DNA of 54,796 nt, taken from the IMG/VR virus record IMGVR_UViG_3300044820_000106, positions 1 through 54,796 of that record; one strand, written 5' to 3'. Both the position numbers and the translations under genes were made by a program. Positions 234-51,455 of this stretch are shown here, in pieces. The notes below the pieces were generated by a model. That model was not told the origin of the DNA. It searched no databases and saw only the letters and a program-made list of their open reading frames with translations. This DNA comes from a virus. Its lineage: Duplodnaviria > Caudoviricetes. How positions within the stretch are numbered: position 1 is the stretch's first letter; the number at the start of each line of letters is the position of its first letter.

Positions 234-850
234 GATGCTGCTCCGATGTAGTCGATGAATTGAAGCTTCGCGGCGGTGAGCTTTTTCAGGAACAGGTCCA
301 GCTCGCGCGCGAGATCCTTCGTGTAGTTGTTCGGCGTGGTGCGCACGATGAACGGCTTGTAGCCCGGGCAGTACGAGATGAAGTCCCAAAACGCGCGCCC
401 GGTGATCAGCAGGTTGCCGTGCACCTGCGCCTTGTGCTCGTCCGGCAGCTCGTCGTCGACCAGCCACTTCACGTGCTTCTTGCCCTCGGGCGCCTTCGCC
501 TCGACGCCGCCGTCGTCGCCGATCAGGCTGTCGGGCGAGCACCCAGCCAGACGATCGTCGCGCAGCACCAGACCGCATTGCTGCGTCTTCACGCGACGCG
601 TGAACTCGTAGTAGGCCCTGGCCTTGGGCTCGAGCCGATTGCCGCGCTCGGTGTGCTCGTTGCCCAGCCACTCGTTGTACGCGTTGGGATTGACGAGCTG
701 GTCGATCAGCTCGCCGATGTAGGCCGACTGTCCGGCCGATGCCTTGCCGGTCTTGGGCGTGATGATGCGATCGAATTCGGACGCGGTCGGGATCCCCCGC
801 CGCGCCGCGAACCATTCGGGGCTGCCTTGTTCGTGGTCGAGGATGATCAT
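230..850 (-). CDS. YqaJ/lambda-exonuclease family recombination nuclease
   Basis: [37 protein letters not shown] motifs; start trimmed to ATG 850 (ATGA overlap with recT). Confidence 0.92.
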
Positions 851-1731
851 GCGGTCTCGTCCCGCTCCTTGACGGTGTCGATGAACTCCTGATACCGCGA
901 CGCAGGCAGCTGCTCGACGGCTTCGATGTCGAACAGCTTGAACAGCTCGTCCGCATTGACGTCTGGCGATTCCAGCCACTCGCGGATGGTAGCGGCCTGC
1001 TCGGCCGAGACGAGCCGCACGGACTCGCCCTCGAGGTCGTATCCGCCCTCGGCATCGTTCGCCAGCTCGATCGACTCAAGCAGCTTGTCCATGCGAGACG
1101 AGTACGGCCACGTCTTCGCGGCGCGCTTGATGACGGCCTTGCGACACATCATCTCGAACCACTCTTCCCACGGACCCTTCTTGCCTTTGTCGCCTTTGAT
1201 GAACGCCGTCGACTTGCTACGAATTTTGTGTATCTCCTCGAGATCCATGATCTCGGTGAGGATGTCGCCGCCCGACGTCTTCGCGATGCAGTACGCGCCG
1301 ACCACCTCGCCACGCTCCTTGGCGAACGGATTCTTGCGGTTGATCTCGGGCGCCTGCGCCGCGCCGCGGTAAACGAACTCGTCGGTGTCGTATACGACGT
1401 CGGCCCGGGCCCACTCGACCGCGCCGGCATCTGTCGCGATCTTGATCAGGCCCTTGTACGAGATGTCGAGCACGATCTTGTTGTCGCGCGGCACGAGGTA
1501 CGCATAGCCGTTCGCCGGGTTCAACGTGAGCCCGGTCGACGCGGCGTTGATCATCGCGTTGCGCACGCTCGCGGGATCGTTGTTCGCGACCTTGAACGCG
1601 TAGTCGTTCTTGGTCAGCGCCTGCATCGCGAAGACGCTTTCGGCTTGGTAGGCCCTGTCGTCCCACAGTTCGACGAATCGTTCTTTCGACGACGCGATCG
1701 CCTTTTCGTACGGTTTCAGTTCGCGGGTCAT
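847..1731 (-). CDS. recT: RecT-family single-strand annealing protein
   Basis: [48 protein letters not shown]; adjacent to exonuclease and ssb. Confidence 0.92.
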
Positions 1732-4735: not shown

Positions 4736-5599
4736 TCACGCGGCCTGCTGGAACCGCACCTCACGACCGGACTTGATGTCGGCCATGCCCTGCGCCAGAC
4801 CCCAGAGCGCCTGATTCAGCTTGACGTTCTGGTCGATGCCCGTGATGGCGCGGGTCGTGGTGCGGCGACCGACCGAGCTGAAACCGCGCTGGCCGCCGCG
4901 GACCAGATGCTCCTGCGTGCGGTTGAACACGGTCCACAGGTCGTTGAACTTGTCGGCCCCGCGCATCGGGCGCAGCACGTCGTTGACGTTGATCGGCGCC
5001 TTGTTGGGCTCGTACCGCAGAGCCAGCGCATGCTGGGCGAACAGCGCCTGCTCGCGCGCATCCAGTTCGATGGACTTCATCTCGTCCTTGTTCTCGTCGA
5101 TCAGCTTCAGCTGGTCGAGCACGCGGTAGGAGCCCTCGATCACCTTGTCGACCACGTTGCCGGTGTGGCGCACGCGGATCTCGTCGGTGCCTTCCCATGC
5201 GATCAGGCCGTTCGAGCAGACCATGCGGAAGATGCCGGCCATCATGCGGTAGCTCGCGCTGCCGTCGTGACCGTTGACCAGCACGACCTCGTTGATCTCC
5301 GGCGCGTACACGCCGAGGTCTTCCTGACGACGGAACTTGATCATGTGCTTGGCGAACTCGCGCTTGCCCGGGATGCGCGTGCGGGACTGCACGACCTCGA
5401 AGGGCAGGAAGCCTTCCTTGCGCATCGCCTCGACCACGTCGATCGTGGTGATGTGTGCGTAGCGCTCGCTGCGCGATTCGTGCTTCTCGGTCTGCAGCAC
5501 GCTCGGCGCGTACTTCTGGATCATCGCGTTCGACAGCGGCTCGGCGCCGCGGTACTGGGAGTCGACGCGGGAAGCGGTGTGGCGGGTGGTCATGTACAT
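4736..5599 (-). CDS. DUF932/DUF945 family protein
   Basis: HESRSERYAHITT, KHMIKFR, NGHDGSASY, FRMVCSNG, DLWTVFNRTQE, LNQALW. Confidence 0.9.
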   Translation of the reverse strand: MYMTTRHTASRVDSQYRGAEPLSNAMIQKYAPSVLQTEKHESRSERYAHITTIDVVEAMRKEGFLPFEVVQSRTRIPGKREFAKHMIKFRRQEDLGVYAPEINEVVLVNGHDGSASYRMMAGIFRMVCSNGLIAWEGTDEIRVRHTGNVVDKVIEGSYRVLDQLKLIDENKDEMKSIELDAREQALFAQHALALRYEPNKAPINVNDVLRPMRGADKFNDLWTVFNRTQEHLVRGGQRGFSSVGRRTTTRAITGIDQNVKLNQALWGLAQGMADIKSGREVRFQQAA

Positions 5600-5665
5600 C
5601 GGGTTATCTCCTTGGTTGGTCGGGTGGTTCTCTCACTGCCGCCTTAGCAGGCGGCAGTAGGCGAA

Positions 5666-5893
5666 TCACTTCACCATGGCCTTCAACTCGGCCTTGATGC
5701 GCTTGGCATCTTCGCCGCGCCACGAGGCCGCGTTGCTCAGGAAGTACAGGACGACCGACTCACCGCTGTCGGCGTAGTAGTTTTCCTTCGGGCTGTTCAG
5801 CGTGGCCATCGCATCCAAGTACGGCTTGGCCGCGTAGTTGACTTTCGGCCACGTGGCCCGGACTTCTGCAGCGATCTCTTTCAGGGTTCTCAT
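5666..5893 (-). CDS. Small hypothetical phage protein
   Basis: GAGGAG RBS before MRTLKEIAAE; downstream of promoter at 5922-5950. Confidence 0.75.
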   Translation of the reverse strand: MRTLKEIAAEVRATWPKVNYAAKPYLDAMATLNSPKENYYADSGESVVLYFLSNAASWRGEDAKRIKAELKAMVK

Positions 5894-5921
5894 TTCAGCT
5901 TCTCCTCTCTTGTCGTAGACG

Positions 5922-5950
5922 AGTATATCATCGATAACTTGGGATTGCAA
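5922..5950 (-). promoter_or_regulatory. sigma70-type early promoter with TATCATCGATA operator-like site
   Basis: TTGCAA-17bp-TATACT. Confidence 0.8.
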
Positions 5951-5955
5951 CTACC

Positions 5956-6213
5956 TCAGTACGCGCCTTCCCAGTTCGACTGCTCGATGCCGCGCGCGTG
6001 GACGCGGACGATGGCTTGCACGGCGTCCCAGTCTTCGTCGGTGTACGGGTGCACGCGCAGCTCACCGGTTGAGTTAGACCAGCTCACCTGCACCTCGGTG
6101 CTGGGGTAGGCCTTCTCGAGCACGCTCTGGATCGTGTCGCAGTACGCGCCGCCGTCCGTGCAGCCGACCGGGAAGTCGATGCCGTTCAGGGTGATGTCGA
6201 TCAGGTTCAGCAT
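5956..6213 (-). CDS. Small acidic hypothetical protein
   Basis: AGGAG RBS, 85 aa. Confidence 0.7.
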   Translation of the reverse strand: MLNLIDITLNGIDFPVGCTDGGAYCDTIQSVLEKAYPSTEVQVSWSNSTGELRVHPYTDEDWDAVQAIVRVHARGIEQSNWEGAY

Positions 6214-6240
6214 GTTCGTGTCTCCTGTGTCTTCGCAGCG

Positions 6241-6271
6241 AGTATATCACCGATATATAATCAAGCTGCAA
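6241..6271 (-). promoter_or_regulatory. sigma70-type early promoter with TATCACCGATA site
   Basis: TTGCAG-19bp-TATACT; same GGTAG-TTGCA context as the other two early promoters; spacer is long. Confidence 0.6.
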
Positions 6272-6524
6272 CTACCCGCTTCGGATCAGTCAGGCTCGCG
6301 ATGTCCGTGTACTCGCGCAGACCCCAGTTTGCGATCTGCTCCGGCAACTCGCTCAGTGGGTACTGGAACGCGAACCGGTTGCTGCCGCGCCAGCGCATCA
6401 GGATCTCGCGCGCGTCGTTGAAGTCCGGGTTGCGCACGATCACGAACCGGTCGCCCAGCGACATGCCGCTGCTGTCGACGTGATTCGTGCCGAAGGTGAA
6501 GAACCACCCGCTCTCGGCGATCAT
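6261..6524 (-). CDS. Hypothetical protein
   Basis: ATGA-coupled 87-aa ORF; WFFTFG and FAFQY motifs. Confidence 0.7.
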   Translation of the reverse strand: MIAESGWFFTFGTNHVDSSGMSLGDRFVIVRNPDFNDAREILMRWRGSNRFAFQYPLSELPEQIANWGLREYTDIASLTDPKRVVAA

Positions 6525-6727
6525 GGCGTCACCGCCTGCAGCGCGTCATTGACCCACGCGTAGTTCACCGGCTCGTTGCTCTCGACCACGCGCGTCTCGC
6601 GCACAGCGAACCATCGGTCGCGCAGGCCGCGAACGTTGGCCTCGGCCTCTTCGCGCGTCGCGAACGCGAGCGCGTTGCCGTACCACTTGCCGGTGTTGTC
6701 GGTTGTTACCTCGGGTTTGAAACTCAT
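6521..6727 (-). CDS. Hypothetical phage protein
   Basis: AAGGAG RBS; MSFKPEV...WYGNALAFATREEAEA...PVNYAW. Confidence 0.75.
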   Translation of the reverse strand: MSFKPEVTTDNTGKWYGNALAFATREEAEANVRGLRDRWFAVRETRVVESNEPVNYAWVNDALQAVTP

Positions 6728-7047
6728 GCGCCTTCTCCTTGCTCGAGCATCGCCAGCCACTCCGCGCCCATGCGCTCGCTGACGAACTCAGGTGAACCTT
6801 TCGTGCCCGGGCGCACTTCGCCGCGCGCCGGGATATAGTTGCCGTAGTAGTCGCGGTGACCGACCTTGCCGAGCATGCACTTCCCGGACTCGATCATATC
6901 CATCATCCCGCGGCCGACCGAACCTTGCATGCTCCAGCCGCTGCCGCCGTTGATCATCACCTGATAGTTCACCGCGGCCTGCTCGGCGCTCTCGCACTCG
7001 CCGCCTTCCAGTTCCAGAATTGCATCGATCTCTCTCATCTCGTTCAC
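6724..7047 (-). CDS. Hypothetical phage protein
   Basis: 107 aa, overlaps neighbours by 4 nt; WSMQGSVGR and RDYYGNYIP motifs. Confidence 0.72.
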   Translation of the reverse strand: MNEMREIDAILELEGGECESAEQAAVNYQVMINGGSGWSMQGSVGRGMMDMIESGKCMLGKVGHRDYYGNYIPARGEVRPGTKGSPEFVSERMGAEWLAMLEQGEGA

Positions 7048-7127
7048 TCCTTCGGATTTTTGGGATCGGGGCGGCGCAAGGCCGACCCGACAACGAACAT
7101 GTACAGCACGATGAAGAGGCAGCCCAT
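7044..7127 (-). CDS. Small hydrophobic peptide
   Basis: GGAG RBS; MGCLFIVLYMFVVGSALRRPDPKNPKE; GTGA-coupled to next gene. Confidence 0.5.
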   Translation of the reverse strand: MGCLFIVLYMFVVGSALRRPDPKNPKE

Positions 7128-7129
7128 GG

Positions 7130-7417
7130 TCACTCTCCCGACGCTCCGACCGACGCGACGACCGACTCGATGTACGGAACCGTGCCGAACGCGTGGATCA
7201 GGTAGCCCACACCGTCGGTCAGGAACGAGACCGACTCGAGGACCGGGAAGAACACCGCGCTATGCGCGATGCCGACACCGGTCGCCATGACGACCGCGCC
7301 CGCGACGAGGCGGTGGCGGTGCGTGTGATCCTTGCCCACGACGTGGTCGCAGACGACGTGCAGAACGTTGACCTTGCGCAGGACGCGCAGGACGGGGAGG
7401 ACACGGGGGTTCGTCAT
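7130..7417 (-). CDS. Putative membrane protein, first gene of the leftward operon
   Basis: AAGGAG RBS; hydrophobic stretches; no HTH or S24 peptidase motifs. Confidence 0.7.
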   Translation of the reverse strand: MTNPRVLPVLRVLRKVNVLHVVCDHVVGKDHTHRHRLVAGAVVMATGVGIAHSAVFFPVLESVSFLTDGVGYLIHAFGTVPYIESVVASVGASGE

Positions 7418-40932: not shown

Positions 40933-42378
40933 ATGGCCACCGACGATTTTTCGCCAGACGCCAACACGCCGACTCGCCGCAAGACGAAGGCGCTGGACAA
41001 CACCGCGTACCTCAACAGCCCGGTGCCGGGCCCGCCGACGAGCGCCTACGATTACGGCCAGTCCGCGCGCGCGGGCGTCGGCACCATTGCGAGCACGGTC
41101 GTCGACGCCAACAAGGCCGTCGGTGGCGCCATGCTTGATCAGGCCAAACTGCAGGCCGCGCCGGTCGTAGAGGGTGCGCGCGGGCTCGCTGATTTTGCGC
41201 GCGGCGCCGCCGGCATCTCGCCCGCGCCGGCCGCGCCCGCGCCGACCGCACAGAGCAATCCCGCGCCGGCCGCGCCGCCCGTCATGTCAGGCGTGACCTC
41301 GACCGCCGTGTCCCAGCCCGCGAACCGATTCTCAAACGTGGGCGCGGCCGCGTCGACGCAGCCCGGCGCCTCGAGTCGCGCGTCGTTCGCGCGCAGCCCG
41401 GGCGACAGCTCGAAGGGCATCGACAACCTGATCGGCAGCGGCGTGGGCGCGGTCGTCAACGGCGTGCCGACCTTCACCTATGACCCGAAGACCGGCGGCA
41501 ATATCGGCCAGCCGTACGTCGACCGCACAAGCGCCAGCCCGTCGACGCCGTACACGGGACCCGAGGGCGGCGTCGCATCGGCCGCCACCGGCCGCGGCGG
41601 GCTCGCCGGCACGATCACGCAGGAACAGGGCGTGCGCGCCGCCGGGCTCGGCTCGCTCCCGGGCGGCAGCTCGACCGTGCAAGGCGGCAACGAATACGAT
41701 CCGGAGGCCGCGCAGCGCGGCGCCGCGTCCGACGTGGCCAGCATCCTCAGTAAGGATCCGCGGTCGACGCTGGGCCGGGCCGCGTGGAACGCTGGCGTCG
41801 ACCTGAACCACCACGGCGCGCGCTCGCGCTCCGGCTCGGCGCCGTCCGAGTACCAGACCGCGATCGGCGGCCTGCTCGGGCAGGTGCAGTCGAACCTGCA
41901 GGCCGGCCATCAGGGCGCGCTCGCCACACAGGCCGAGGGCGCGGCCGCCGGGCGCCAGAATTCGCAGCAGAACTTCGATCTCGCCAAGCTCAACACCGAG
42001 ATCGCGGCCAAGCAGGGCGAGCAGGGCACCTACCAGACCGACGCGAACGGCAACCTGTTCCGCGTGTCCGGCACGAGCGCGACGCCCGTGTCCGGTATCG
42101 GCGCGCTGCCGACGCAGCAGGGCAAGGGCTTCACCGAGGCCCACGCCAAGCTGTGGGATTCGCTCAACAACGAAACCAAGCAGGACGAGACCGGCAAGAC
42201 GGTGCCGCTGAGCTATGATGAACGCGTGCAGAAGTTCAACGCTCTGCTGAACAACGGCACCGCTGGAAGCGGCGCCACGACCTCGAAGACCGCCGGGACC
42301 GCGACCGCAACCGCGAAGGACGGTACGAAATTGAAACTCTCCGCTGACGGCAAGTCGTGGGTGAAGGCGAATGGCTGA
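40933..42378 (+). CDS. Internal virion / ejection protein candidate
   Basis: Gly/Ala/Ser-rich; precedes the giant protein. Confidence 0.7.
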   Translation: MATDDFSPDANTPTRRKTKALDNTAYLNSPVPGPPTSAYDYGQSARAGVGTIASTVVDANKAVGGAMLDQAKLQAAPVVEGARGLADFARGAAGISPAPAAPAPTAQSNPAPAAPPVMSGVTSTAVSQPANRFSNVGAAASTQPGASSRASFARSPGDSSKGIDNLIGSGVGAVVNGVPTFTYDPKTGGNIGQPYVDRTSASPSTPYTGPEGGVASAATGRGGLAGTITQEQGVRAAGLGSLPGGSSTVQGGNEYDPEAAQRGAASDVASILSKDPRSTLGRAAWNAGVDLNHHGARSRSGSAPSEYQTAIGGLLGQVQSNLQAGHQGALATQAEGAAAGRQNSQQNFDLAKLNTEIAAKQGEQGTYQTDANGNLFRVSGTSATPVSGIGALPTQQGKGFTEAHAKLWDSLNNETKQDETGKTVPLSYDERVQKFNALLNNGTAGSGATTSKTAGTATATAKDGTKLKLSADGKSWVKANG

Positions 42379-45300
42379 CAACGGCCTGCCGCCGCTGCCC
42401 GACGGCGCCACGCTCGACACGCACGACAGCCTGCCCCCGCTGCCGTCCGGCGCGTCGCTCGACAGCGCGCCCGCCAAGCCCCGCGCGCGCGGCGCGCTGG
42501 ATACGCTGAGCGATCTCGGCCAGAGCGCGTACGGCGCGGCCCAGCACGGTCTCGGTTCGATCGTGCGCGGCGTCGGCGAGTACACCGGGCTCAACGGCGT
42601 GCGCGACGTCGGCAAGGGCATGGCCGAGTCCGGCACGATCAATCAGGAAACGACCTCGCCGGAATTCCGCGCCGAGACGTCGAAGGGTCTGCTCGACTCG
42701 GGCGGATTCACCGGCACGAACGTCGCGCGCAAGTCGCTCGATTCGCTGGGCGAAATGTTCGCTCCGGTGGCCGCGTCGGCGATCACCGGCCCCGCTGCCG
42801 CTCCCGTCGGCGCCGCACTGTTCGGCGCGCAGGGCCGTGGCGCTGGCGCGGAAGAGGGCGAGAAGCAAGTCGCCGCCATGAAGGACGAGCAGCTGGCCGC
42901 GGTCCCGCGGTATCAGGAACTGCTGAAGTCCGGTCTCGACCCGGCGGCCGCGCGCGCGCAACTCTCCGACGAAGTCGCGAGCCGCGTCGGCAACGTGCAG
43001 GGCGCGTTCGGCGCCGCGCTCGGTCTCGCCGGCAAGATCCCGGGCATCTCGCAGCTGTCGTCCGCGGTGGGCTCGAAGCTTGTGCAGCCGCTGGCGCGCG
43101 GACTCGGCGGCGAACTGGCGCGCCCGGTCGCGCGCACGCTCGGCGAGGCCGCCGGCCAAGGCGTCGCGTTCCCGGCGATCAACGCCGCCGGCTCGGTCGT
43201 CGGCAACGTCACGAATCCGATCGACACCGACCCCGGGCAGGGCGCGCTTGAGTCGGCCGCATCCGGCGTCATCCCCGGTATCGTCACCGGCCTGACCCAC
43301 GGCCTCCTCAACGAGCGCGCCATGGGCGCGCGCACGCGCAAGGCCCTGAGCGACCTCCCGCCGCCCGCCGCCCCGCCTGCGCCGCTACAGCTCGGCTACG
43401 AGCCGGATTACACGGTCGACAGCCAAGGCCGCGCGATCTACAACAAGGGCGACCGCAACCTCGGCCGCCCGCTCGGCGGCAAGGGCATGGAAGAGCAGGC
43501 CCCGACGCCGGTCACCGGATTCGCCGGCATGGGCACGCTCTCCGGCCAGACGCCGGCCGAGTCCGCGCTCAGCTATCTGCGCGACTTGCACGCGAGCACG
43601 CCGCCCGGCGGCGCTGTCTCCGACGACACGCAGGCCGCCATCGCGCGCACGACCGCCATGGCGAAAGCCGCGGGCGCCAGCGACGAGGACATCGCCGCCG
43701 CGCACAGCACGCCGCCGACGCCGGCTGACGTGGAGCGCGCGCAGGGAAAGCCGGTCGGCCCGATCGCCGGAGCGCTCGAGGCCGTTCCCGAGTCGACGAT
43801 CGAGTCGCAAGCGGTCGAGGCGAACACGCCCGAGCCGACGCCGGAAGAGCAGAAGGCCGCCGCGGCCGCCGCGCCGTTCAAGAGCAACTATCTCGACGGC
43901 GCGCCCGCGCGCGCGGAAGGCGAGGACGACAAGGCCTACGTCAACCGCGTCGTGCGCAACCTGCCGACGCCGACCGCCGAGCACCTGCCCGACGACCCGT
44001 CGCTGTACTTCAACGAGCAGGACTCGCACCGCGAGCCGATCAACAACCTCAAGCCGAGCAGGCCGCAGGATCTACTCGATCAGCGGCAGGGCCCGGCGAA
44101 GATCATGGCGTCTGCCGCGGCCGGCGCGATTGCCAAGCGCGAGCCGCTGTCCGTGCGTCAGGAAGCGGACGGTTCGTACACCGTGCTCGACGGCAACGGC
44201 ACCTACAACGCGGCGAAGAACGCCGGGTTCAAGGAGCTGCCGATCCGCGTCGATCAGGTGGCGGCCGAGGACGGCTGGCGCGACGCCATCGCGGCGCACA
44301 AGGATCTGACCCCGGACGCGAAGAATGGGCTCATCGCCAAGTTCGAAGAAGCCGAAGCGGTCAAGCCCGTGTTCGATCGCACGCTGGTCGACCTGACGCA
44401 CGAGCTGGGCCTGCCGGATCCGAAGCTCGCGCCGATCAAGGGCGTCGCGCGCACGGCAGAGAAGACCGCGACCGAGTACGACAACGACCCGTCGCGGATG
44501 CGCGACATCGTGCGCGGCACGATCACGGCCAACACGCCCGAGCAGGCCAAGTCGCTGATCGACACGCTCAGGCAGCGGTTCAAGGTGACGGCGGTCAAGG
44601 ATTCGATTTCGCCCGGCACCGAACCGCGCGGCGCGACCGGATACCGTGACGCGAACCTGACGGTCGAGATCAACGGTCACCCGACCGAGATTCAGATCTC
44701 GACGCCGGAGATGCTGGCCGCGAAGAAGCTCGGCCACAAGCTCTACAAAGAGCAGCGCGCGATTGAAGCGCAGGCCAAGCTCGAGAAGCGCCCGCTCAAC
44801 GATGACGAGCAGGCGCAGGTGACGCGTCTGGCGCAGCAGCAGACGAAGCTGTACGCGGACGCCTATGCCGGCGCGCGCGGCGCCGAATCGAACCCGGCTG
44901 CCTTGAAGGCCGACTCGCGCTCGCCGGGCGACGTCAACTCGGACGTGCCGCCTGTTTTGGACAACGGCGAGTCGCGCTTGACCGGCCAAGACTTGCCGCC
45001 CTCGAAGCCGAGCATGTCGACGCCGTCTCCGAAGCCGGAAGGGTTGAACGCGAGCAAGCCCACCGCGTCGTCCGAAAAGAACCGGGTGCCGGCGGGCAGC
45101 GAGCGTGGATCTGCTGAGCGTGGATCGAATGACATTGGTAAATCCTCTGAAGGAAGTGTACCACAAAATACCGATGATAAACTGTCTGTCGCCAGTTCTG
45201 GCGGCATTATTCCGCCTGTGCGTGGCGGCAAAAACGAGCCCGCGCACGTGGAGCGCCTGCGCAATTCGCTGTTCAAGGATAGCAAGATCGGCAACGCGCT

Positions 45301-48300
45301 GCGCCGTCTCGAGCTGAGCGGCGGCCTGCGCATTGTCGACGAGCCCAGCAACGTATATTCGGGCAAGTTCGAAAACGGCAAGCTGATCCTTAACGCGCCG
45401 TACCTCAACGACCGCACCGCGCTGGGCGTCGCCCTGCACGAAGCCGGCCATGCTGAGAAGGCCGGCGGCTCGCTGCGCGCGTTCGTCGGCCACGGCGAGT
45501 TCGACAAGCTCACCGCGCGGCTCGACGAGATCAAGAAGGCCGGCGGCCGTGACGCCGATCTCGTCCGCAAGGCCGAGGCCCGCGTCGAGAAGGCGGGCAC
45601 GAAGCCCGAGCACGCAGCTGAAGAGCGGCTGATGTACTTCATCGAAGAGGCCCGCAATGCCGAGACGGGCGGCACGATCAGTGATAAAGTGCGCGGTACT
45701 CTGCGGCAGATTTACGCGTCGATCAAGGCGGCGCTGTACAACTCGCCGCTCGGCAAGTACCTGAAGAAGGCCGGCATCGAGCTGAACGCGAGCGACTACG
45801 TTGCGCTCGCCGAGGCGGCCGTGCGTCGTCAGGCCAACGAATCGATGCGCGCGAACGGCCTGACGCCCGAGCCGCTGTACAGCAAGGGAGCTACCAGTGA
45901 AAAACGAACCGACGCAGGACGAGGATCTGATGCTGCCGGCGCACGAGGCGTATCTGAAGTGGGCAAAGGGCAAGGGAAGGGATGGAACGAAAAGCCCGTC
46001 CACCCCAGCGCCATCGCCGTCGACGCCGTCCACTACTCAACCCAAGCAGGACTGACCAAGCTCCTCGGCCGCAAGTACGGCACGAACCACGCGGGCGCCG
46101 AGCGCGCGCGTGTGTCCGATGGCGGCATTGCGAACCGCGTGTACTTCTACCCGAAGGATTCGCCGCTGGCCGCGCGCGGCGAGTCGATGGTCGGTCGCGC
46201 CGCAAAGTACGAGCAGCGGCTCAACAACATGTACGACATGCGCACCGATCCGCTGGATCTGCGCGACAAGGCCGACGCGGCCGAGAAGCGCGGCAAGGAC
46301 TGGAACAACGCGCTCGACAAGGCCGTGGTCGATGCCGGCTTCGACGGCTTCCGCACGCACGACATGGCCGTCGTGCTCGGCTCGAAAAACGGCGTCGACG
46401 TCAGCGCGCCGAAGTACTCGAAGCCGACCAAGGAAACGGTCGCCGAGGTGCTGGGCGAGCGCGCGAAGTACCTGACGTCTGACGAATTCGCCAAGCAGCG
46501 CGTGGGCACCGCGAAGAAACTCGTCGAGCTGATGAGCAAGCTGCCGGATGCGAAAGAGATGGCCAGCGTCGCGCTCGCCGGCAAGGCCAAGCGCGGCTGG
46601 TACAAGGACAGCGCCGACGCGATCCTGTCGACCTTCGGCACGAAGGACGCGCCGCGCTTCGCCGCGCTGCTGTCCGCGCTGTCGCCGCAGACGAGCGTCG
46701 AGAACAACCTGCTCAACGCGCTGCACACGTGGAAGAACTGGGACGCCGCCGGCCGGCCGACCGACAAGGCCGCGATCGTGCGCGTGCTCGGCAAGTCGGT
46801 GCAGGGCAACAAGGGCGAGGACAGCGTGCTCGGCGCGTGGATCAACAACAGCGTGCGCGCGCTCGGCGATCCGGATCCGAGCAAGACGACGCTGTCCGGC
46901 CCGAAGGTCAACAGCTTCATGAACAACCTGCGCGGCGTCGTCGACGAAGTGACGAACGATGCGTGGATGGCCAACTACGCGCTCGTCGACCAGACGATGT
47001 TCTCGGGCTCCCTGCTGCCCGGCTCGAACGATCCCGGCAAGCGCCCGGGCTACGTGGCCATGAGCGCGCGCACGCGCGAGGCCGCGGCGCACCTGACGAA
47101 GATCACGGGCGAGAAGTGGACGCCGGCCGAGGTGCAAGAGACCGTGTGGTCGTGGGCCAAGACCGCCTACGAGCTGGCGTCGAAGACCGGCGAGTCGGTC
47201 GCCGACCTCGTGAAGTCGGGCAAGATCACCGACGACCTGATCAAGTCCACCCCCGCTTTCGGAGAGCTGTTCAATGCAGACCAATACCGATCCATCCTCG
47301 AGTCCGCAGGACTCAACCCAACTCGCGGTGCAGATCATGCAGCGAGCGGACAAGCCGAACCCCGCGCTGCAGGCGAAGCAAAAGCGGCTGCTGACGTTGC
47401 TCCGAAAGCAAAGCACCTCCAGCAAGCCGCCGGCCGCCTCGACGCTCTGAGGGCGCAGCGCGCGTCCGCAGAGGCCAAGTTCTCGATCCCCGACACGGTC
47501 GGTATCGCCTACCCGGGCGACATCGGGAAAGAGAAGGACCGCATCGCGCAGCGGCTGTTCGAACAGCCGTACAGGCAACTGGCGCCGGACGATCGCGAAC
47601 TGGTCGACCAAGCGCACCAGACGTCGTCGGCCGAGGCCAACCGCATGTACTCGGTGCCCGCGGTCGCGACGCCCGCACGCGCGCAGCAGACCGGCTCGAA
47701 CCTCAAGGACGCGATGGCGAAGATGCGCGAGATCGGCCGCGGCATCATCCGCTCGTCGCTCGCGATTCAGGACCGCGCGATCGGCACGGCCGACGCAGCG
47801 CTTGAGGGCTGGCGCACGGCGTTCGACAAGCGCGCGCGCAGCATCCTCAACGACCCGAAGCTCGCGCTCGCCCCGGTCATCGACTACCAGAACGGGCGCC
47901 CGGTCGACGCGCGCGTGAAGCCGTTCTTCGACACGATGTCGAACATGCTCGACAAGCAGGTGGCCGAGATCCACTCGTTCGGCAAGGGCTACCTCGAGGG
48001 CCTGATCGAAAACTACTACCCGCAGCAGTGGAAAGATCCCGCGCGCGCCGAAGACTTCTACAAGACCTTCCTCGGCAAGCGCCCGATCGCGGGCGACAAG
48101 TCGTTCATGAAAGAGCGCGTGTTCAAGGACTACGAGGCCGGCATCGACGCGGGCTTCGAGCCGGTGTCGCACAACCCGGTCGACATGCTCATGGCGCGCT
48201 ACCAGAGCGGCGAGAAGCTGCTCACGTCGCTGCGCATCATGAAGGAGATGGAAGACCGCGGCCTCGCGAAGAAACTCGCGAACGACGAGCGCGTGCCGAA

Positions 48301-50107
48301 AGGTTGGTCTCGCGTGAACGATCACACGTTCGACACGTACATCGTGCCCGACCAGATCGCGCGCGACCTCAACAACTACCTCGACCCCGGGCTTAACCGG
48401 TTCGCCGCGTGGCGCGGCTTCCGCTGGATGCAGAATTTCCTGCTGACCTCGCGACTCGGCCTGTCGGCGTTCCACGCCGGCATGACGACGCTCGACTCGC
48501 TCTCGAGCCACATGGATCTCGCGTGGCGCGGCGCGCTGCGCGGCGACCTCGGCGGCTCCCTGCGTCAGCTCGGGCATGCCGCGCTCGCGCCTGTGACGGC
48601 CGTACGCGAGCTTGCCGGCAAGGGCGAGGGCAGCAAGCTGCTTCGCCAGTGGTACGGCAAGGCCGCGATGGACGTGCACACCGAGGCGATTCTGCGCGCG
48701 CTCACCGAGGGCGGCGCGAATGCGAAGATGAGCGCGACCGACTACAACAACAGCCTGCACCAGTTCACCCGGGCGTGGAGCCAGCGCGACCTGAAAAACC
48801 TGACGTACACGTCGGTGCCGGCCGCGATGGAAGCCACGACCGCGCTGATCGCGCACCGGCTCGTCCCGGCGCAGAAGATGATCGCGCGCGTGCACCTGCT
48901 GAAGTTCGAACTGGACCGCATCGCCGGCCAGCTCGGCACGGCGAAGGGCGACTACGCCGACACGATCGCGAAGATGAACACCGACACGCTGCGTCAGGTC
49001 GCGTATCGCGTGAACGCCGACGTCGACGATCGCCTCGGCCAGTTCAACTACAACAACCTATTCTGGAATAAAACGTTCCGCGACGCGCTGCACGCGTCGG
49101 TGCAGTCGGTCGGCTGGAACTTCGGCACCCTGCGCCTGCTCCTCGCGGGCGGCGCCGACGCGCGCGACATCGTCAAGGGCGGCAAGGACTACGTCGCGCC
49201 GCTCGACAAGGCCGGCAACATCACCGACAAGAAGATGAGCCGGCTCACGAACCGGCTGGGCTACCTGATCACGCTCAACGCGGTCGTCGCCTCGCTCGGC
49301 GCGATGACGCAGTACGCGCTCACGGGCAAGGGTCCCGAGGAAATCCGCGACTACTTCTTCCCGAAGACCGGCCGCAAAAACAACGACGATACCGACGAGC
49401 GTCTGTCGTTCCCGTCGTACGTGAAGGACGAATGGGAATTCCGCCACCACCCGATCACGACGCTGCAGCACAAGCTGCACCCGTCGCTGTCGATGATGGC
49501 CGAGCTGTACAACAACAAGGACTTCTACGGCAACCAGATCTACGATCCGGAAGCGAACATCCCCGAAGAGGCCAAGCAGTTCATGACCTACCTCGGCAAG
49601 AGCATGCTGCCGTATTCGGTCACGGGCGCGGCCAAGAACGCGTCGACCGGCAAGTCGACCGCGATGACGATCGCGCCGTTCTTCGGCGTCACGCCCGCGC
49701 CGGGCTCGGTCACGAAGTCGGAATTCCAGCAGTACGTCGCCGATCGCCACTTCGGCCAGCAGAGCAACGAGGGCCGCTCGGTGAAGAGTGCCGAGTCGAG
49801 CCACGCGTTCAGCGACGCGCTGCAGGCGATGCGTCTGGGTCAGCCGGTCGACAAGACGCAGTTCTCGAGGGGCCAGCTCGAGGCGATGCAGCGGATGATC
49901 AGGACGCCGATGCCGCAGTCGTATTTCGGCAAGCTGCCGTTCGATCAGCAGATGCACGCGCTCGAGATCGCGACGCCGCTCGAGCGTCAGAAGTACGGGC
50001 TCGAGCGCACGATGCGCAAGGGCCTGTCGAGCTACCTGTCGAAGCTGCCGCCGTCGCAGCGCGCCGAGGTGCGCGACAAATTCAACGAACTGGTATCGAA
50101 CCGCTAA
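42371..50107 (+). CDS. Giant polyvalent virion/ejection protein: ParB-like, RelA/SpoT-like nucleotidyltransferase, zincin peptidase, HhH-glycosylase-like and helical C-terminal domains
   Basis: YTVLDGNGTYNAA (about 44020-44260); IKGVARTAEK, RDIVRG, GYRD, EIQI, HKLYK (about 44340-44860); LHEAGH (about 45435); GWY, ALSPQ, GPKVNSF, VTNDAW, EVQETVW (about 46560-47250). Confidence 0.88.
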   Translation: MADNGLPPLPDGATLDTHDSLPPLPSGASLDSAPAKPRARGALDTLSDLGQSAYGAAQHGLGSIVRGVGEYTGLNGVRDVGKGMAESGTINQETTSPEFRAETSKGLLDSGGFTGTNVARKSLDSLGEMFAPVAASAITGPAAAPVGAALFGAQGRGAGAEEGEKQVAAMKDEQLAAVPRYQELLKSGLDPAAARAQLSDEVASRVGNVQGAFGAALGLAGKIPGISQLSSAVGSKLVQPLARGLGGELARPVARTLGEAAGQGVAFPAINAAGSVVGNVTNPIDTDPGQGALESAASGVIPGIVTGLTHGLLNERAMGARTRKALSDLPPPAAPPAPLQLGYEPDYTVDSQGRAIYNKGDRNLGRPLGGKGMEEQAPTPVTGFAGMGTLSGQTPAESALSYLRDLHASTPPGGAVSDDTQAAIARTTAMAKAAGASDEDIAAAHSTPPTPADVERAQGKPVGPIAGALEAVPESTIESQAVEANTPEPTPEEQKAAAAAAPFKSNYLDGAPARAEGEDDKAYVNRVVRNLPTPTAEHLPDDPSLYFNEQDSHREPINNLKPSRPQDLLDQRQGPAKIMASAAAGAIAKREPLSVRQEADGSYTVLDGNGTYNAAKNAGFKELPIRVDQVAAEDGWRDAIAAHKDLTPDAKNGLIAKFEEAEAVKPVFDRTLVDLTHELGLPDPKLAPIKGVARTAEKTATEYDNDPSRMRDIVRGTITANTPEQAKSLIDTLRQRFKVTAVKDSISPGTEPRGATGYRDANLTVEINGHPTEIQISTPEMLAAKKLGHKLYKEQRAIEAQAKLEKRPLNDDEQAQVTRLAQQQTKLYADAYAGARGAESNPAALKADSRSPGDVNSDVPPVLDNGESRLTGQDLPPSKPSMSTPSPKPEGLNASKPTASSEKNRVPAGSERGSAERGSNDIGKSSEGSVPQNTDDKLSVASSGGIIPPVRGGKNEPAHVERLRNSLFKDSKIGNALRRLELSGGLRIVDEPSNVYSGKFENGKLILNAPYLNDRTALGVALHEAGHAEKAGGSLRAFVGHGEFDKLTARLDEIKKAGGRDADLVRKAEARVEKAGTKPEHAAEERLMYFIEEARNAETGGTISDKVRGTLRQIYASIKAALYNSPLGKYLKKAGIELNASDYVALAEAAVRRQANESMRANGLTPEPLYSKGATSEKRTDAGRGSDAAGARGVSEVGKGQGKGWNEKPVHPSAIAVDAVHYSTQAGLTKLLGRKYGTNHAGAERARVSDGGIANRVYFYPKDSPLAARGESMVGRAAKYEQRLNNMYDMRTDPLDLRDKADAAEKRGKDWNNALDKAVVDAGFDGFRTHDMAVVLGSKNGVDVSAPKYSKPTKETVAEVLGERAKYLTSDEFAKQRVGTAKKLVELMSKLPDAKEMASVALAGKAKRGWYKDSADAILSTFGTKDAPRFAALLSALSPQTSVENNLLNALHTWKNWDAAGRPTDKAAIVRVLGKSVQGNKGEDSVLGAWINNSVRALGDPDPSKTTLSGPKVNSFMNNLRGVVDEVTNDAWMANYALVDQTMFSGSLLPGSNDPGKRPGYVAMSARTREAAAHLTKITGEKWTPAEVQETVWSWAKTAYELASKTGESVADLVKSGKITDDLIKSTPAFGELFNADQYRSILESAGLNPTRGADHAASGQAEPRAAGEAKAAADVAPKAKHLQQAAGRLDALRAQRASAEAKFSIPDTVGIAYPGDIGKEKDRIAQRLFEQPYRQLAPDDRELVDQAHQTSSAEANRMYSVPAVATPARAQQTGSNLKDAMAKMREIGRGIIRSSLAIQDRAIGTADAALEGWRTAFDKRARSILNDPKLALAPVIDYQNGRPVDARVKPFFDTMSNMLDKQVAEIHSFGKGYLEGLIENYYPQQWKDPARAEDFYKTFLGKRPIAGDKSFMKERVFKDYEAGIDAGFEPVSHNPVDMLMARYQSGEKLLTSLRIMKEMEDRGLAKKLANDERVPKGWSRVNDHTFDTYIVPDQIARDLNNYLDPGLNRFAAWRGFRWMQNFLLTSRLGLSAFHAGMTTLDSLSSHMDLAWRGALRGDLGGSLRQLGHAALAPVTAVRELAGKGEGSKLLRQWYGKAAMDVHTEAILRALTEGGANAKMSATDYNNSLHQFTRAWSQRDLKNLTYTSVPAAMEATTALIAHRLVPAQKMIARVHLLKFELDRIAGQLGTAKGDYADTIAKMNTDTLRQVAYRVNADVDDRLGQFNYNNLFWNKTFRDALHASVQSVGWNFGTLRLLLAGGADARDIVKGGKDYVAPLDKAGNITDKKMSRLTNRLGYLITLNAVVASLGAMTQYALTGKGPEEIRDYFFPKTGRKNNDDTDERLSFPSYVKDEWEFRHHPITTLQHKLHPSLSMMAELYNNKDFYGNQIYDPEANIPEEAKQFMTYLGKSMLPYSVTGAAKNASTGKSTAMTIAPFFGVTPAPGSVTKSEFQQYVADRHFGQQSNEGRSVKSAESSHAFSDALQAMRLGQPVDKTQFSRGQLEAMQRMIRTPMPQSYFGKLPFDQQMHALEIATPLERQKYGLERTMRKGLSSYLSKLPPSQRAEVRDKFNELVSNR
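44863..45135 (-). CDS. Nested antisense gene (90 aa) directly after the RelA/SpoT domain; candidate antitoxin
   Basis: AGAGGA RBS 7 nt before ATG; upstream extended -10; host frame becomes Ser/Pro-rich with TCG/CCG/TTG codons. Confidence 0.65.
   Translation of the reverse strand: MSFDPRSADPRSLPAGTRFFSDDAVGLLAFNPSGFGDGVDMLGFEGGKSWPVKRDSPLSKTGGTSELTSPGERESAFKAAGFDSAPRAPA
45155..45180 (-). promoter_or_regulatory. Intragenic promoter with early-type operator
   Basis: TGTGG-TACACT extended -10 and TATCATCGGTA (45169-45179) in an AT-rich island. Confidence 0.6.
45897..46055 (+). CDS. Nested +1-frame gene (52 aa) after the zincin domain
   Basis: AAGGGAG RBS then GTG; MKNEPTQDEDLMLPAHEAYLKWAKGKG...; GC3 bias switches to the +1 frame. 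Confidence 0.6.
   Translation: MKNEPTQDEDLMLPAHEAYLKWAKGKGRDGTKSPSTPAPSPSTPSTTQPKQD
47274..47450 (+). CDS. Nested +1-frame gene (58 aa) after the glycosylase-like domain
   Basis: GGAGAG RBS then ATG; MQTNTDPSSSPQDSTQLAVQIMQRADKPNPALQAKQKRLLTLLRKQ...; GC3 bias switches to the +1 frame. Confidence 0.6.
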   Translation: MQTNTDPSSSPQDSTQLAVQIMQRADKPNPALQAKQKRLLTLLRKQSTSSKPPAASTL

Positions 50108-50241: not shown

Positions 50242-51455
50242 CACCCTTTTACGCAGACGACTTGCTTGAGCGTGTGCACGACCTCGACCAGATCTTCCTG
50301 CGCGGCCATCACGGCGTCGATATCCTTGTACGCGGCCGGCGTCTCGTCAAGCACGCCCTCGTCCTTGCGGCACTCGACGCCCGCCGTTGCGGTCGCGTGA
50401 TCCTCGAGCGTGAACTTGCGCTTCGCCTCGCCTCGTGACATCGCGCGCCCGGCGCCGTGCGAGCACGAGTGAAACGAATCGCGGTTGCCCTTACCGCGGA
50501 CGATGAACGACTTCGCGCCCATGCTGCCGGGGATGATGCCCAGCTCGCCCGCGGCCGCGCTCACCGCGCCCTTGCGGGTGACGTGCACACGCTCGCCGAA
50601 GTGCTTCTCTTCGGAGATGTAGTTGTGGTGGCAGTTCACCGCGGACTCTTCTGCGACGAAGACCTTGCGCACGGTCGCCGCGAGCGCATTCATTGCGGCG
50701 TCCATCATCTCCTCGCGGTTCGCGCGCGCGAAGCGCTGTGCCCACGCAACGGCTCTGCGATAGTCGTCGTAGTTCTTCGTGCCCTCCGGCAAATAGGCAA
50801 GGTCTTCGTCAGGCAGATTGATGAACCACCTGCGCATATCTTCCTTGGCGCGCTCGATGAAGTACGAGCCGATTCGGTTGCCGATGCCGCGCGATCCGGA
50901 GTGCAGCATCACCCAGACCCGCTGCTCTTCGTCTAGGCAGACCTCGACAAAATGGTTGCCCGTGCCGAGCGTGCCAAGTTGATGGCCAGCGCGGTCAGCG
51001 GCTTTCGATATCGACGGGTGCATCATGACGATGTCATCGAGATCTGCGATCAGATCTCCGGTGTTGACACTCCACTTCGAGACTCTCCACGCGCCGCGAT
51101 CGTTCACGCCGCCGTTGTCGGTCCTGCCGTGCGGGATCGCCTTTTCGATCGCGGTGCGAAGACCGAGCAGGTTGTCCGGCAAGTCGGAAGCGGTCAGCGT
51201 CGTGCGCAAGGCCATCATGCCGCAGCCGATGTCGACGCCCACGGCCGCTGGGATAATCGCGCCCTTCGTCGCGATCACGCTGCCGACGGTCGCGCCCATA
51301 CCCCAGTGCACGTCCGGCATCGCGGCCACGTGCCGGTGGATGAACGGCATGTTCGCAAGGTTGAGCAGCTGCTGCTTGGCCGAATCCTCGACCTGTACGC
51401 CGCGCGTCCACGCCTTGATCGGCAGCCGGGCGCCATCGAAAATTTCAAACGACAT
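50241..51455 (-). CDS. rtcB: RtcB RNA ligase
   Basis: MPDVH, VGVDIGCGM, LGTLGTGNHF, HSGSRG, HHNY, IPGSMG, SCSHGAGR, DETPAAYK. Confidence 0.97.
   Translation of the reverse strand: MSFEIFDGARLPIKAWTRGVQVEDSAKQQLLNLANMPFIHRHVAAMPDVHWGMGATVGSVIATKGAIIPAAVGVDIGCGMMALRTTLTASDLPDNLLGLRTAIEKAIPHGRTDNGGVNDRGAWRVSKWSVNTGDLIADLDDIVMMHPSISKAADRAGHQLGTLGTGNHFVEVCLDEEQRVWVMLHSGSRGIGNRIGSYFIERAKEDMRRWFINLPDEDLAYLPEGTKNYDDYRRAVAWAQRFARANREEMMDAAMNALAATVRKVFVAEESAVNCHHNYISEEKHFGERVHVTRKGAVSAAAGELGIIPGSMGAKSFIVRGKGNRDSFHSCSHGAGRAMSRGEAKRKFTLEDHATATAGVECRKDEGVLDETPAAYKDIDAVMAAQEDLVEVVHTLKQVVCVKG

Follow-up and report, generated by a model that had tools for sequence, protein, structure and literature searches.

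A conserved small-protein gene family nested opposite the linker beside phage Tas1-like RelA/SpoT domains, and its candidate role as a cognate inhibitor

Passages of PMC11782079 and PMC12226406 describe the neutralization of (p)ppApp-synthetase toxins by hydrolases and by small binding proteins occluding the acceptor site, and RelA/SpoT-like domains fused to phage head (MuF) proteins or to polyvalent proteins appear in parts of PMC5576092, PMC5512222, and PMC12226406. Whether long antisense open reading frames (ORFs) in prokaryotes are ever functional is an open question, posed in PMC7457138. Here we analyzed a 54,796-nt stretch of Caudoviricetes DNA, IMG/VR record IMGVR_UViG_3300044820_000106 (the window, by which we mean the whole stretch), in which a 90-codon minus-strand ORF lies at the edge of a RelA/SpoT-like domain encoded within a giant plus-strand gene. 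Comparison with related loci indicates that this ORF is a divergent copy of a conserved small-protein gene family, whose product may inhibit the adjacent domain. The features concerned are as follows.

42371..50107, plus strand: gene for a giant polyvalent-type phage protein of 2578 aa, with a typical coding composition (GC1/2/3 0.66/0.48/0.89)
44396..44875, plus strand: RelA/SpoT-like (Tas1-like) nucleotidyltransferase domain segment, residues 676-835 of the giant protein
44864..45136, plus strand: the sense "linker," translated from the strand opposite the small gene (codons 832-922 of the giant protein)
44863..45135, minus strand: antisense small-protein ORF, ATG at 45135..45133, 90 codons, TAG at 44865..44863; the window's divergent copy of the family defined by alignment A2
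45148..45143, minus strand: Shine-Dalgarno-like AGAGGA, 7 nt from the ATG

An earlier note, made from the letters of the window and a list of its ORFs, had read a minus-strand AGAGGA, a 7-nt spacer, and an ATG opening a 90-aa frame. All of these are present and the translation is identical; the product begins MSFDPRSADPRSLPAGTRFF. The ORF lies entirely within the plus-strand ORF 42371..50107, opposite sense residues 832-922, and the two frames share their third codon positions (a wobble-aligned arrangement). The note had also placed its stop where the last helix of the synthetase domain ends, correctly so: the stop falls 3 nt short of alignment position 157 of the domain, opposite the sense codons that encode A-Y-A. 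It had missed that the antisense frame is also open upstream of the ATG, with a GTG at 45675 and a stop-to-stop segment reaching 45711. The sense text over residues 832-922, which the note called low-complexity Ser/Pro, is indeed a Ser/Pro/Gly/Glu-rich segment, and sense GC3 falls to 0.62-0.67 in this linker. The arrangement AGAGGA-N5-9-ATG occurs four times in the window against 0.93 expected, a modest enrichment, and terminator-like sites number three against 2.0 expected by chance. Near the start of the ORF is a 15-nt tandem duplication (45097..45126, minus strand), within which the 11-mer GATCCACGCTC at 45126..45116 is repeated at 45111..45101; the antisense peptide reads DPRSA-DPRS there, and the sense linker repeats S-(A)-E-R-G.

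The comparison set comprised 111 loci encoding relatives of the domain (L-numbers below), including 80 viral and 30 genomic loci fetched through a domain alignment (A1), and together with the window gave 112 sequences. The post-domain "linkers" of these loci could be aligned and carried recurring motifs, and the opposite strand read as recurring protein-like text with a Trp. A hidden Markov model (HMM) was built from 33 antisense ORFs (alignment A2) and run over the whole window and the 111 loci in all six frames. Of the 112 sequences, 73 matched, many of them outside the training set. Relative to the domain, every one of the 73 used the minus strand and the wobble-aligned frame and had its stop between -54 and +6 nt from the domain end, a linkage of family and domain that holds among these loci, which were fetched through the Tas1-like domain. 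The window ORF, wobble-aligned on the minus strand with its stop at -3 nt, fits this pattern. The earlier note had looked to homologues of the 90-aa peptide beside RelA/SpoT domains as a check: among these loci the family profile found such neighbors in 73 of 73 cases, and the single peptide had no match.

The family ORFs encode 68-99 aa with the consensus MKxPxxFPxGxxF...PDGxxFxL...EAxF. Each of the 60 unique family ORFs scored for start signals has an ATG within -14 to +9 codons of the model start, 48 of them exactly at it, and a Shine-Dalgarno-like motif (GGAG, GAGG, or AGGA at -18 to -4) precedes 50 of the 60, compared to 340 of 9855 control windows (3.5%). Nesting within the sense ORF is the rule (61 of 64 unique ORFs), and three ORFs overlap it only at its tail. 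Free-standing convergent copies occur in L003, L016, and L020, which represent seven loci of 34-42% GC and overlap the tail of the toxin gene by 37-49 nt; the motif persists in these copies although the sense frame is closed there. Two free-standing small genes are located as follows.

L021, 4423..4638, minus strand: free-standing small gene, the last gene of a leftward cluster
L003, 2790..3008, minus strand: free-standing small gene; the sense frame is closed

The stand-alone synthetases at these two loci (L021 3560..4471 and L003 559..2826, both plus strand) are fused to head-morphogenesis-type N-terminal parts with D-H-P-R-D...G-x-F, which we take to be a hallmark of MuF/SPP1 gp7-like proteins. 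Family loci as a whole span 34-72% GC and include metagenome-assembled genomes labeled Alphaproteobacteria, Burkholderiales, Planctomycetaceae, and Bifidobacteriaceae.

Frame-specific selection was measured on 39 representatives less than 60% identical, drawn from the 74 loci whose sense ORF runs on for at least 240 nt. Synonymous codons were permuted 300 times within each locus's linker, a procedure that keeps the protein and the local codon usage. Nine antisense stops were observed in the linkers compared to 25.3 ± 3.5 after permutation (0/300 permutations as low), and antisense pairwise identity was 0.2611 compared to 0.2393 ± 0.0014 (0/300 as high). The same permutation applied to the domain as a control gave no such effect (stops 154 versus 135.1 ± 6.4; identity 0.3204 versus 0.3214), and locus-wide wobble resampling agreed with the within-linker test. 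Four of the nine linker stops fall in two representatives with non-homologous linkers, and the remaining five lie beside the domain end, around the ends of the ORFs. The transversion fraction at wobble sites, computed over sequence pairs that are not independent of one another, was as follows.

Domain: sense 2-fold/antisense 4-fold sites, 0.122; sense 4-fold/antisense 2-fold sites, 0.467; sites 4-fold in both frames, 0.433
Linker core: sense 2-fold/antisense 4-fold sites, 0.343; sense 4-fold/antisense 2-fold sites, 0.157; sites 4-fold in both frames, 0.475

In the domain, selection acts on the sense frame only. In the linker, the antisense frame is under purifying selection and the sense frame is weakly constrained; the sites that are 4-fold degenerate in both frames are saturated there, and a general nucleotide constraint is therefore excluded. 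The linker pattern holds in pairs whose domains are less than 35% identical (0.251 versus 0.502) and is absent in the seven representatives without a family match (0.44-0.55). An antisense Trp is kept at 20 of 20 homologous sites, where the sense residue is S, N, or T, across loci with GC3 of 0.38-0.87. The codon before the conserved sense Gln ends in C, as antisense TGG needs (the exception, L083, has Cys; the window has G as its sense residue).

A canonical member of the family (L031), modeled by AlphaFold2 (AF2) from the 33-row alignment, folds into five strands and a C-terminal helix with a predicted local distance difference test (pLDDT) score of 96.3 and a predicted template modeling (pTM) score of 0.84. 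Ten family members searched against Pfam, PHROGs, NCBIfam, and PADLOC gave only subthreshold matches (EKR, E 0.026, for L055; phrog_12327, E 0.33, for L010), and a structure search of BFVD returned weak matches to uncharacterized small phage proteins (best E 0.013, TM 0.55). Among 5.8 billion protein clusters, the family profile matched 28 called proteins, none functionally named and mostly on short contigs.

Several observations weigh against this picture of a gene family. Ten of the 60 unique family ORFs lack a Shine-Dalgarno-like motif, and the six-frame HMM search did not find the family at 39 of the 112 domain-related loci, including the Bordetella phage vB_BbrM_PHB04 (L001) and a distinct clade of short stand-alone synthetases. 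The dependence among sequence pairs in the selection statistics counts on the same side, and so does a crude test in which only 24 of 65 sequences were stop-free over 300 nt after the domain, with at least one stop in the other 41; this count is misleading because 300 nt exceeds most of the ORFs, which mostly span about 210-240 nt. Against these stand the conserved family, its ATG and Shine-Dalgarno signals, the antisense-specific selection, the free-standing copies, and the canonical fold, and we regard it as nearly certain that the conserved small-protein gene family is real. The Ser/Pro sense text is largely the shadow of the small gene, and the claim of a real opposite-strand gene is upheld.

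The wide spread of the family in GC content and across several phyla, together with the free-standing copies, suggests that the large ORF overprinted the small gene and not the reverse. The ancestral layout would have been a convergent pair, and polyvalent proteins would have arisen when the toxin ORF read on through the complement of the small gene into further modules. That complement, wobble-aligned, would now serve as a Ser/Thr/Pro-rich interdomain linker in most of the phages, including the window. Read in that frame, it stays open automatically whenever the small protein has few Tyr, His, or Gln residues.

The domain beside which the small gene sits is a RelA/SpoT-like one. Pfam RelA_SpoT aligned to residues 690-795 of the giant protein with E 6e-3, below the gathering score, and a profile of the region built from ten homologues matched Tas1 best among PDB entries (6ox6, E 3.4e-18), followed by small alarmone synthetase (SAS) and Rel enzymes. 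The columns invariant in the ten-protein alignment are all kept in the window (R19, K23, D37, R40, G82, Y83, D85, and E98), and we take them to include the catalytic ones. Relatives of the giant protein are 27-36% identical to it and carry the polyvalent-protein Pfam families PF18760, PF18763, PF18834, PF18857, and PF23802. Its other Pfam matches are DUF7178 at 1408-1594 and, weakly, ParB_N at 591-635. The gene comes last in a P22-like portal-capsid module, and the window also encodes RecT.

No partner on the strand of the toxin was seen in this clade, where no search was aimed at a hydrolase-type second immunity gene. With no such partner, and with a small folded protein fixed at the 3' edge of the domain, the simplest reading is a cognate inhibitor. 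The explanation that we favor as a whole, by a little over even chances, is an unannotated family of genes of about 70-90 aa nested beside the Tas1-like domain, with the inhibitor as the product. On the basis of its linkage to that domain, the small protein would, somewhat more probably than not, neutralize the adjacent synthetase. It may bind and block the domain while the giant protein is being synthesized, or it may protect lysogens that receive the giant protein from a superinfecting phage. The small gene would be transcribed from its own minus-strand promoter, and the toxin domain and its inhibitor would travel as one inseparable DNA cassette. The earlier note had also suggested that read-through RNA would be antisense to the toxin-domain mRNA. 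More tentatively, and at slightly below even odds, the two strands of one DNA segment may carry a toxin domain and the gene for its immunity protein, with the complement of the immunity gene acting as a flexible linker of a giant injected phage protein. Recombination would then never separate the two, and convergent transcription may time the antidote, which would be on in lysogens or early infection and overridden by late transcription of the giant gene.

The points that weigh against an inhibitory function come from sequence and structure searches, from a promoter scan, which gave no sigma-70-like match upstream of the window ORF, and from known gene orders. Searched with the A2 profile, PDB chains gave no sequence at E≤10, and a Foldseek search of the PDB returned nothing significant (best E 0.31; 6ox6, which holds Tis1, was not among the matches listed); with respect to IapK, these negatives carry the limit that the presence of an IapK structure in the PDB set is unconfirmed. 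No pZFD, Tis1-like, or Panacea domain was detected in the family. In the portion of PMC12226406 that treats apk2, the immunity genes follow apk2 and the text leaves their strand unstated, and toxin-antitoxin pairs stand in bicistronic operons in the corresponding part of PMC7229694.

In the leading alternative, the nested family is real and its product is no synthetase inhibitor. The product could instead help to package or assemble the giant virion protein as a chaperone, regulate late transcription by way of convergent transcription, or be an independent anti-defense or moron protein hitch-hiking at this site. We give this perhaps a one-in-several standing, unlikely although the strongest of the rivals. 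All of the evidence for a gene is silent on function, the family bears no likeness to Tis1-type or any solved antitoxin, the small gene of L021 ends a leftward cluster outside the toxin operon, and the giant gene is located in a structural module. This reading has more difficulty with the position of the family, which in 73 of 73 matches adjoins the 3' end of the Tas1-like domain regardless of what lies downstream (the loci having been fetched via that domain), since a protein with no tie to the domain should have parted from it in the extensive shuffling of polyvalent domains reported in part of PMC5512222. Moreover, where a related domain lacks the family, its neighbors include other immunity candidates, such as the HD hydrolase of PHB04. 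In the region 5080..7345 of that phage, which lacks the nested family, the portal gene is immediately followed by the RelA/SpoT-like gene, and the same strand continues with a 69-aa ORF, the metal-dependent (HD) phosphohydrolase, and a NinI-like phosphatase.

Directly beside the giant gene of the window lies a gene for an RtcB tRNA-splicing ligase (50244..51455, minus strand; Pfam E 1.6e-133), and PHB04 has an annotated RtcB gene (318..1511, minus strand) within about 4 kb of its RelA/SpoT-like gene. This recurrence might hint at a tRNA-directed conflict.

The standing of the copy in the window is a separate matter. Its N-terminal motif, P.SLPAGTRFF, resembles the P..FPxGxxF of the family (hhalign P 7e-4), it retains the Trp and the C-terminal Phe-containing helix segment, and a Shine-Dalgarno motif with an ATG would occur by chance in a 24-codon window at the family start position with a probability of about 0.037. 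The following points count against it. The hhalign alignment covers only the 14 columns of the N-terminal motif, with a probability of 25.6%. The family HMM with the window left out scored the copy at E 3.3 (4.0 bits), at the top of 800 six-frame segments and not significant, and the HMM of the closest subgroup, again without the window, gave E 0.36. AF2 placed four strands and then a C-terminal helix in the peptide, with a pLDDT of 60.5 and a pTM of 0.43. About 14 residues before the C-terminal helix have no counterpart in the other 32 A2 sequences, and the 15-nt duplication also counts against it. The wobble comparison of the window with the other sequences has four informative sites, and no close relative of the window was found in viral contigs (single-protein scan) or among 144 candidate metagenome-contig stretches. 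With no such relative in the collections searched, the selection measured is that of the family and not of the window's own lineage.

Openness adds nothing to the case for the window copy. A wobble-aligned antisense stop requires a sense Tyr, or a His or Gln after a codon of the form NNT, and the sense stretch 832-922 has only two Tyr, His, or Gln residues. Consequently little can be read from the frame: the 90 codons stay stop-free in 1863 of 2000 whole-gene synonymous shuffles and in 1883 of 2000 local ones, and openness is uninformative because about 93% of the shuffles keep it. The earlier note was right to caution that openness alone is no evidence. Codon-usage log-odds are likewise ambiguous (antisense +0.013 and sense -0.076, against 0.30 ± 0.11 for true frames). 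Both results weigh on the unfavorable side.

The second alternative is that the copy in the window is a decaying relic, the family being real elsewhere and the stretch surviving here only as a sense linker. The weak leave-one-out scores, the low pLDDT, the duplication and extra segment, and the readiness of the frame to stay open all speak for it. The copy has nevertheless kept its ATG and Shine-Dalgarno motif at the family start, its N-terminal motif, Trp, and helix segment, its stop at the canonical place, and, in its low-confidence AF2 model, a layout of strands followed by a helix (four strands compared to five in L031). In addition, the invariant residues of the synthetase are intact, so that the domain, if toxic, would still call for an inhibitor. 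We consider decay rather improbable, and less likely than a non-inhibitor role for the family. Given the divergence, descent of the window ORF from the family is considered very likely, and present function, judged from these sequence features, is set lower, as somewhat more likely than not.

Before the related loci were compared, a "shadow ORF" had seemed the very probable verdict from openness, codon usage, and single-peptide searches. The window peptide had no match in Pfam, PHROGs, NCBIfam, or PADLOC, none of four candidates among 5.8 billion protein clusters was confirmed (proteins of 49-158 aa only), and tblastn against 50,697 phage records gave nothing at E≤1 for the peptide and nothing at E≤0.01 for four canonical members. 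When close relatives of the window were sought among phages by blastn and tblastn, the only matches were a 99-nt and a 153-aa one, both in PHB04. That verdict was rejected after the comparison. The remaining alternative, a chance shadow of a GC-rich gene that is non-coding everywhere and whose conservation mirrors a sense-linker motif or a nucleic-acid element, draws on the abundance of long antisense ORFs (35 of at least 90 aa, covering 50% of 23 GC3-rich window genes), on the codon table, by which a Ser/Thr/Asn/Gly/Pro-rich sense text mechanically yields a "globular-looking" antisense rich in Asp/Glu/Val/Phe/Pro/Gly, and on the unmatched single peptide, but it is already contradicted at the family level and very improbable, since wobble transversions are purged according to antisense and not sense degeneracy with both-4-fold sites saturated (excluding sense-only and nucleotide constraint), antisense stops are depleted relative to codon-preserving permutations, the motif is still present in loci with a closed sense frame, ATG and Shine-Dalgarno signals are conserved, and the canonical member folds with high confidence.

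Two more interdomain stretches of the giant gene, at 45746..46150 and 47096..47500, show the same kind of drop in sense GC3 (0.64-0.79) and come with wobble-aligned antisense ATG ORFs (45829..46014, 61 aa; 47509..47748, 79 aa), with no convincing Shine-Dalgarno sequence seen upstream of either. After the linker, at 45400..45480 on the plus strand (sense residues ~1010-1035), the giant protein has an H-E-x-x-H motif (ALHEAGHAEK) without a Pfam match. The motif hints at a zincin-type peptidase, a module type for which a role in polyvalent-protein processing has been proposed.

If the small gene is what we propose, it would be among the best-supported conserved antisense-nested protein genes of phages and would bear on whether long antisense ORFs are functional. 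Alarmone-synthetase toxin systems would gain a small-protein family and a genetic layout, and the locus would suggest how toxin-immunity cassettes get built into polyvalent virion proteins. The "linkers" of giant phage proteins could then hide conserved genes that gene callers leave unreported, an annotation blind spot visible in the 28 called proteins among 5.8 billion clusters compared to 73 of 112 sequences by six-frame search.

Among solved structures, the window domain is nearest to Tas1, the toxin of the type VI secretion pair Tas1-Tis1. A small protein genetically locked to a toxin domain fits the immunity logic of both Tas1-Tis1 and the prophage MuF-Apk2/IapK/Aph1 set, and the gene order of PHB04 resembles the published Apk2/IapK/Aph1 order. 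In those sets, as far as the relevant part of PMC12226406 describes them, the immunity gene comes after the toxin gene, whereas here the candidate partner is on the opposite strand, nested or overlapping the tail. The family also differs from the Tas1/Tis1 and Apk2/IapK pairs in having neither a PDB-chain match nor a significant fold match, and in its layout, with 61 of 64 unique ORFs nested and three convergent.

The toxSAS modules (FaRel, FaRel2, PhRel, PhRel2, and CapRel), as portrayed in sections of PMC7229694 and PMC11782079, likewise combine a synthetase effector with a dedicated neighboring protein neutralizer, and the window domain shares their synthetase fold and motifs (RelA_SpoT below the cut-off; Tas1 at 3.4e-18). 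The toxSAS link drawn by the earlier note stands insofar as the gene is tied to a RelA/SpoT-like domain. It does not extend to a classical module: in those sections, toxSAS are small stand-alone SAS in co-directional bicistronic or tricistronic operons or fused to the antitoxin, whereas the window has its synthetase embedded as one domain within a protein of 2578 aa, and the candidate neutralizer is antisense and without likeness to Tis1-type or other solved antitoxins.

With the polyvalent proteins of Iyer et al. 2017, in the part of PMC5512222 that treats them, the window shares a giant multidomain layout with ParB-like, RelA/SpoT, and DUF/LPD modules. A gene hidden in the interdomain complement is not described in the main text of that paper, where "antisense" and "linker" have no occurrences; "antisense" is equally absent from the main texts of PMC12226406, PMC5576092, PMC11782079, and PMC7229694. 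The literature searched yielded no account of a gene lying antisense to, or nested beside, RelA/SpoT-like domains, a point on which supplementary neighborhood tables might bear. The family is a new small-protein family in a new nested layout.

Finally, the antisense overlapping genes of Pseudomonas aeruginosa and E. coli O157, going by parts of PMC8850804 and PMC9927249, are also embedded, also use a wobble-coincident frame, and are also under purifying selection, which in the present case is seen at the family level only. The P. aeruginosa ORFs are called "evolutionarily novel" in that portion of PMC8850804, whereas the family described here is widespread and also occurs free-standing.

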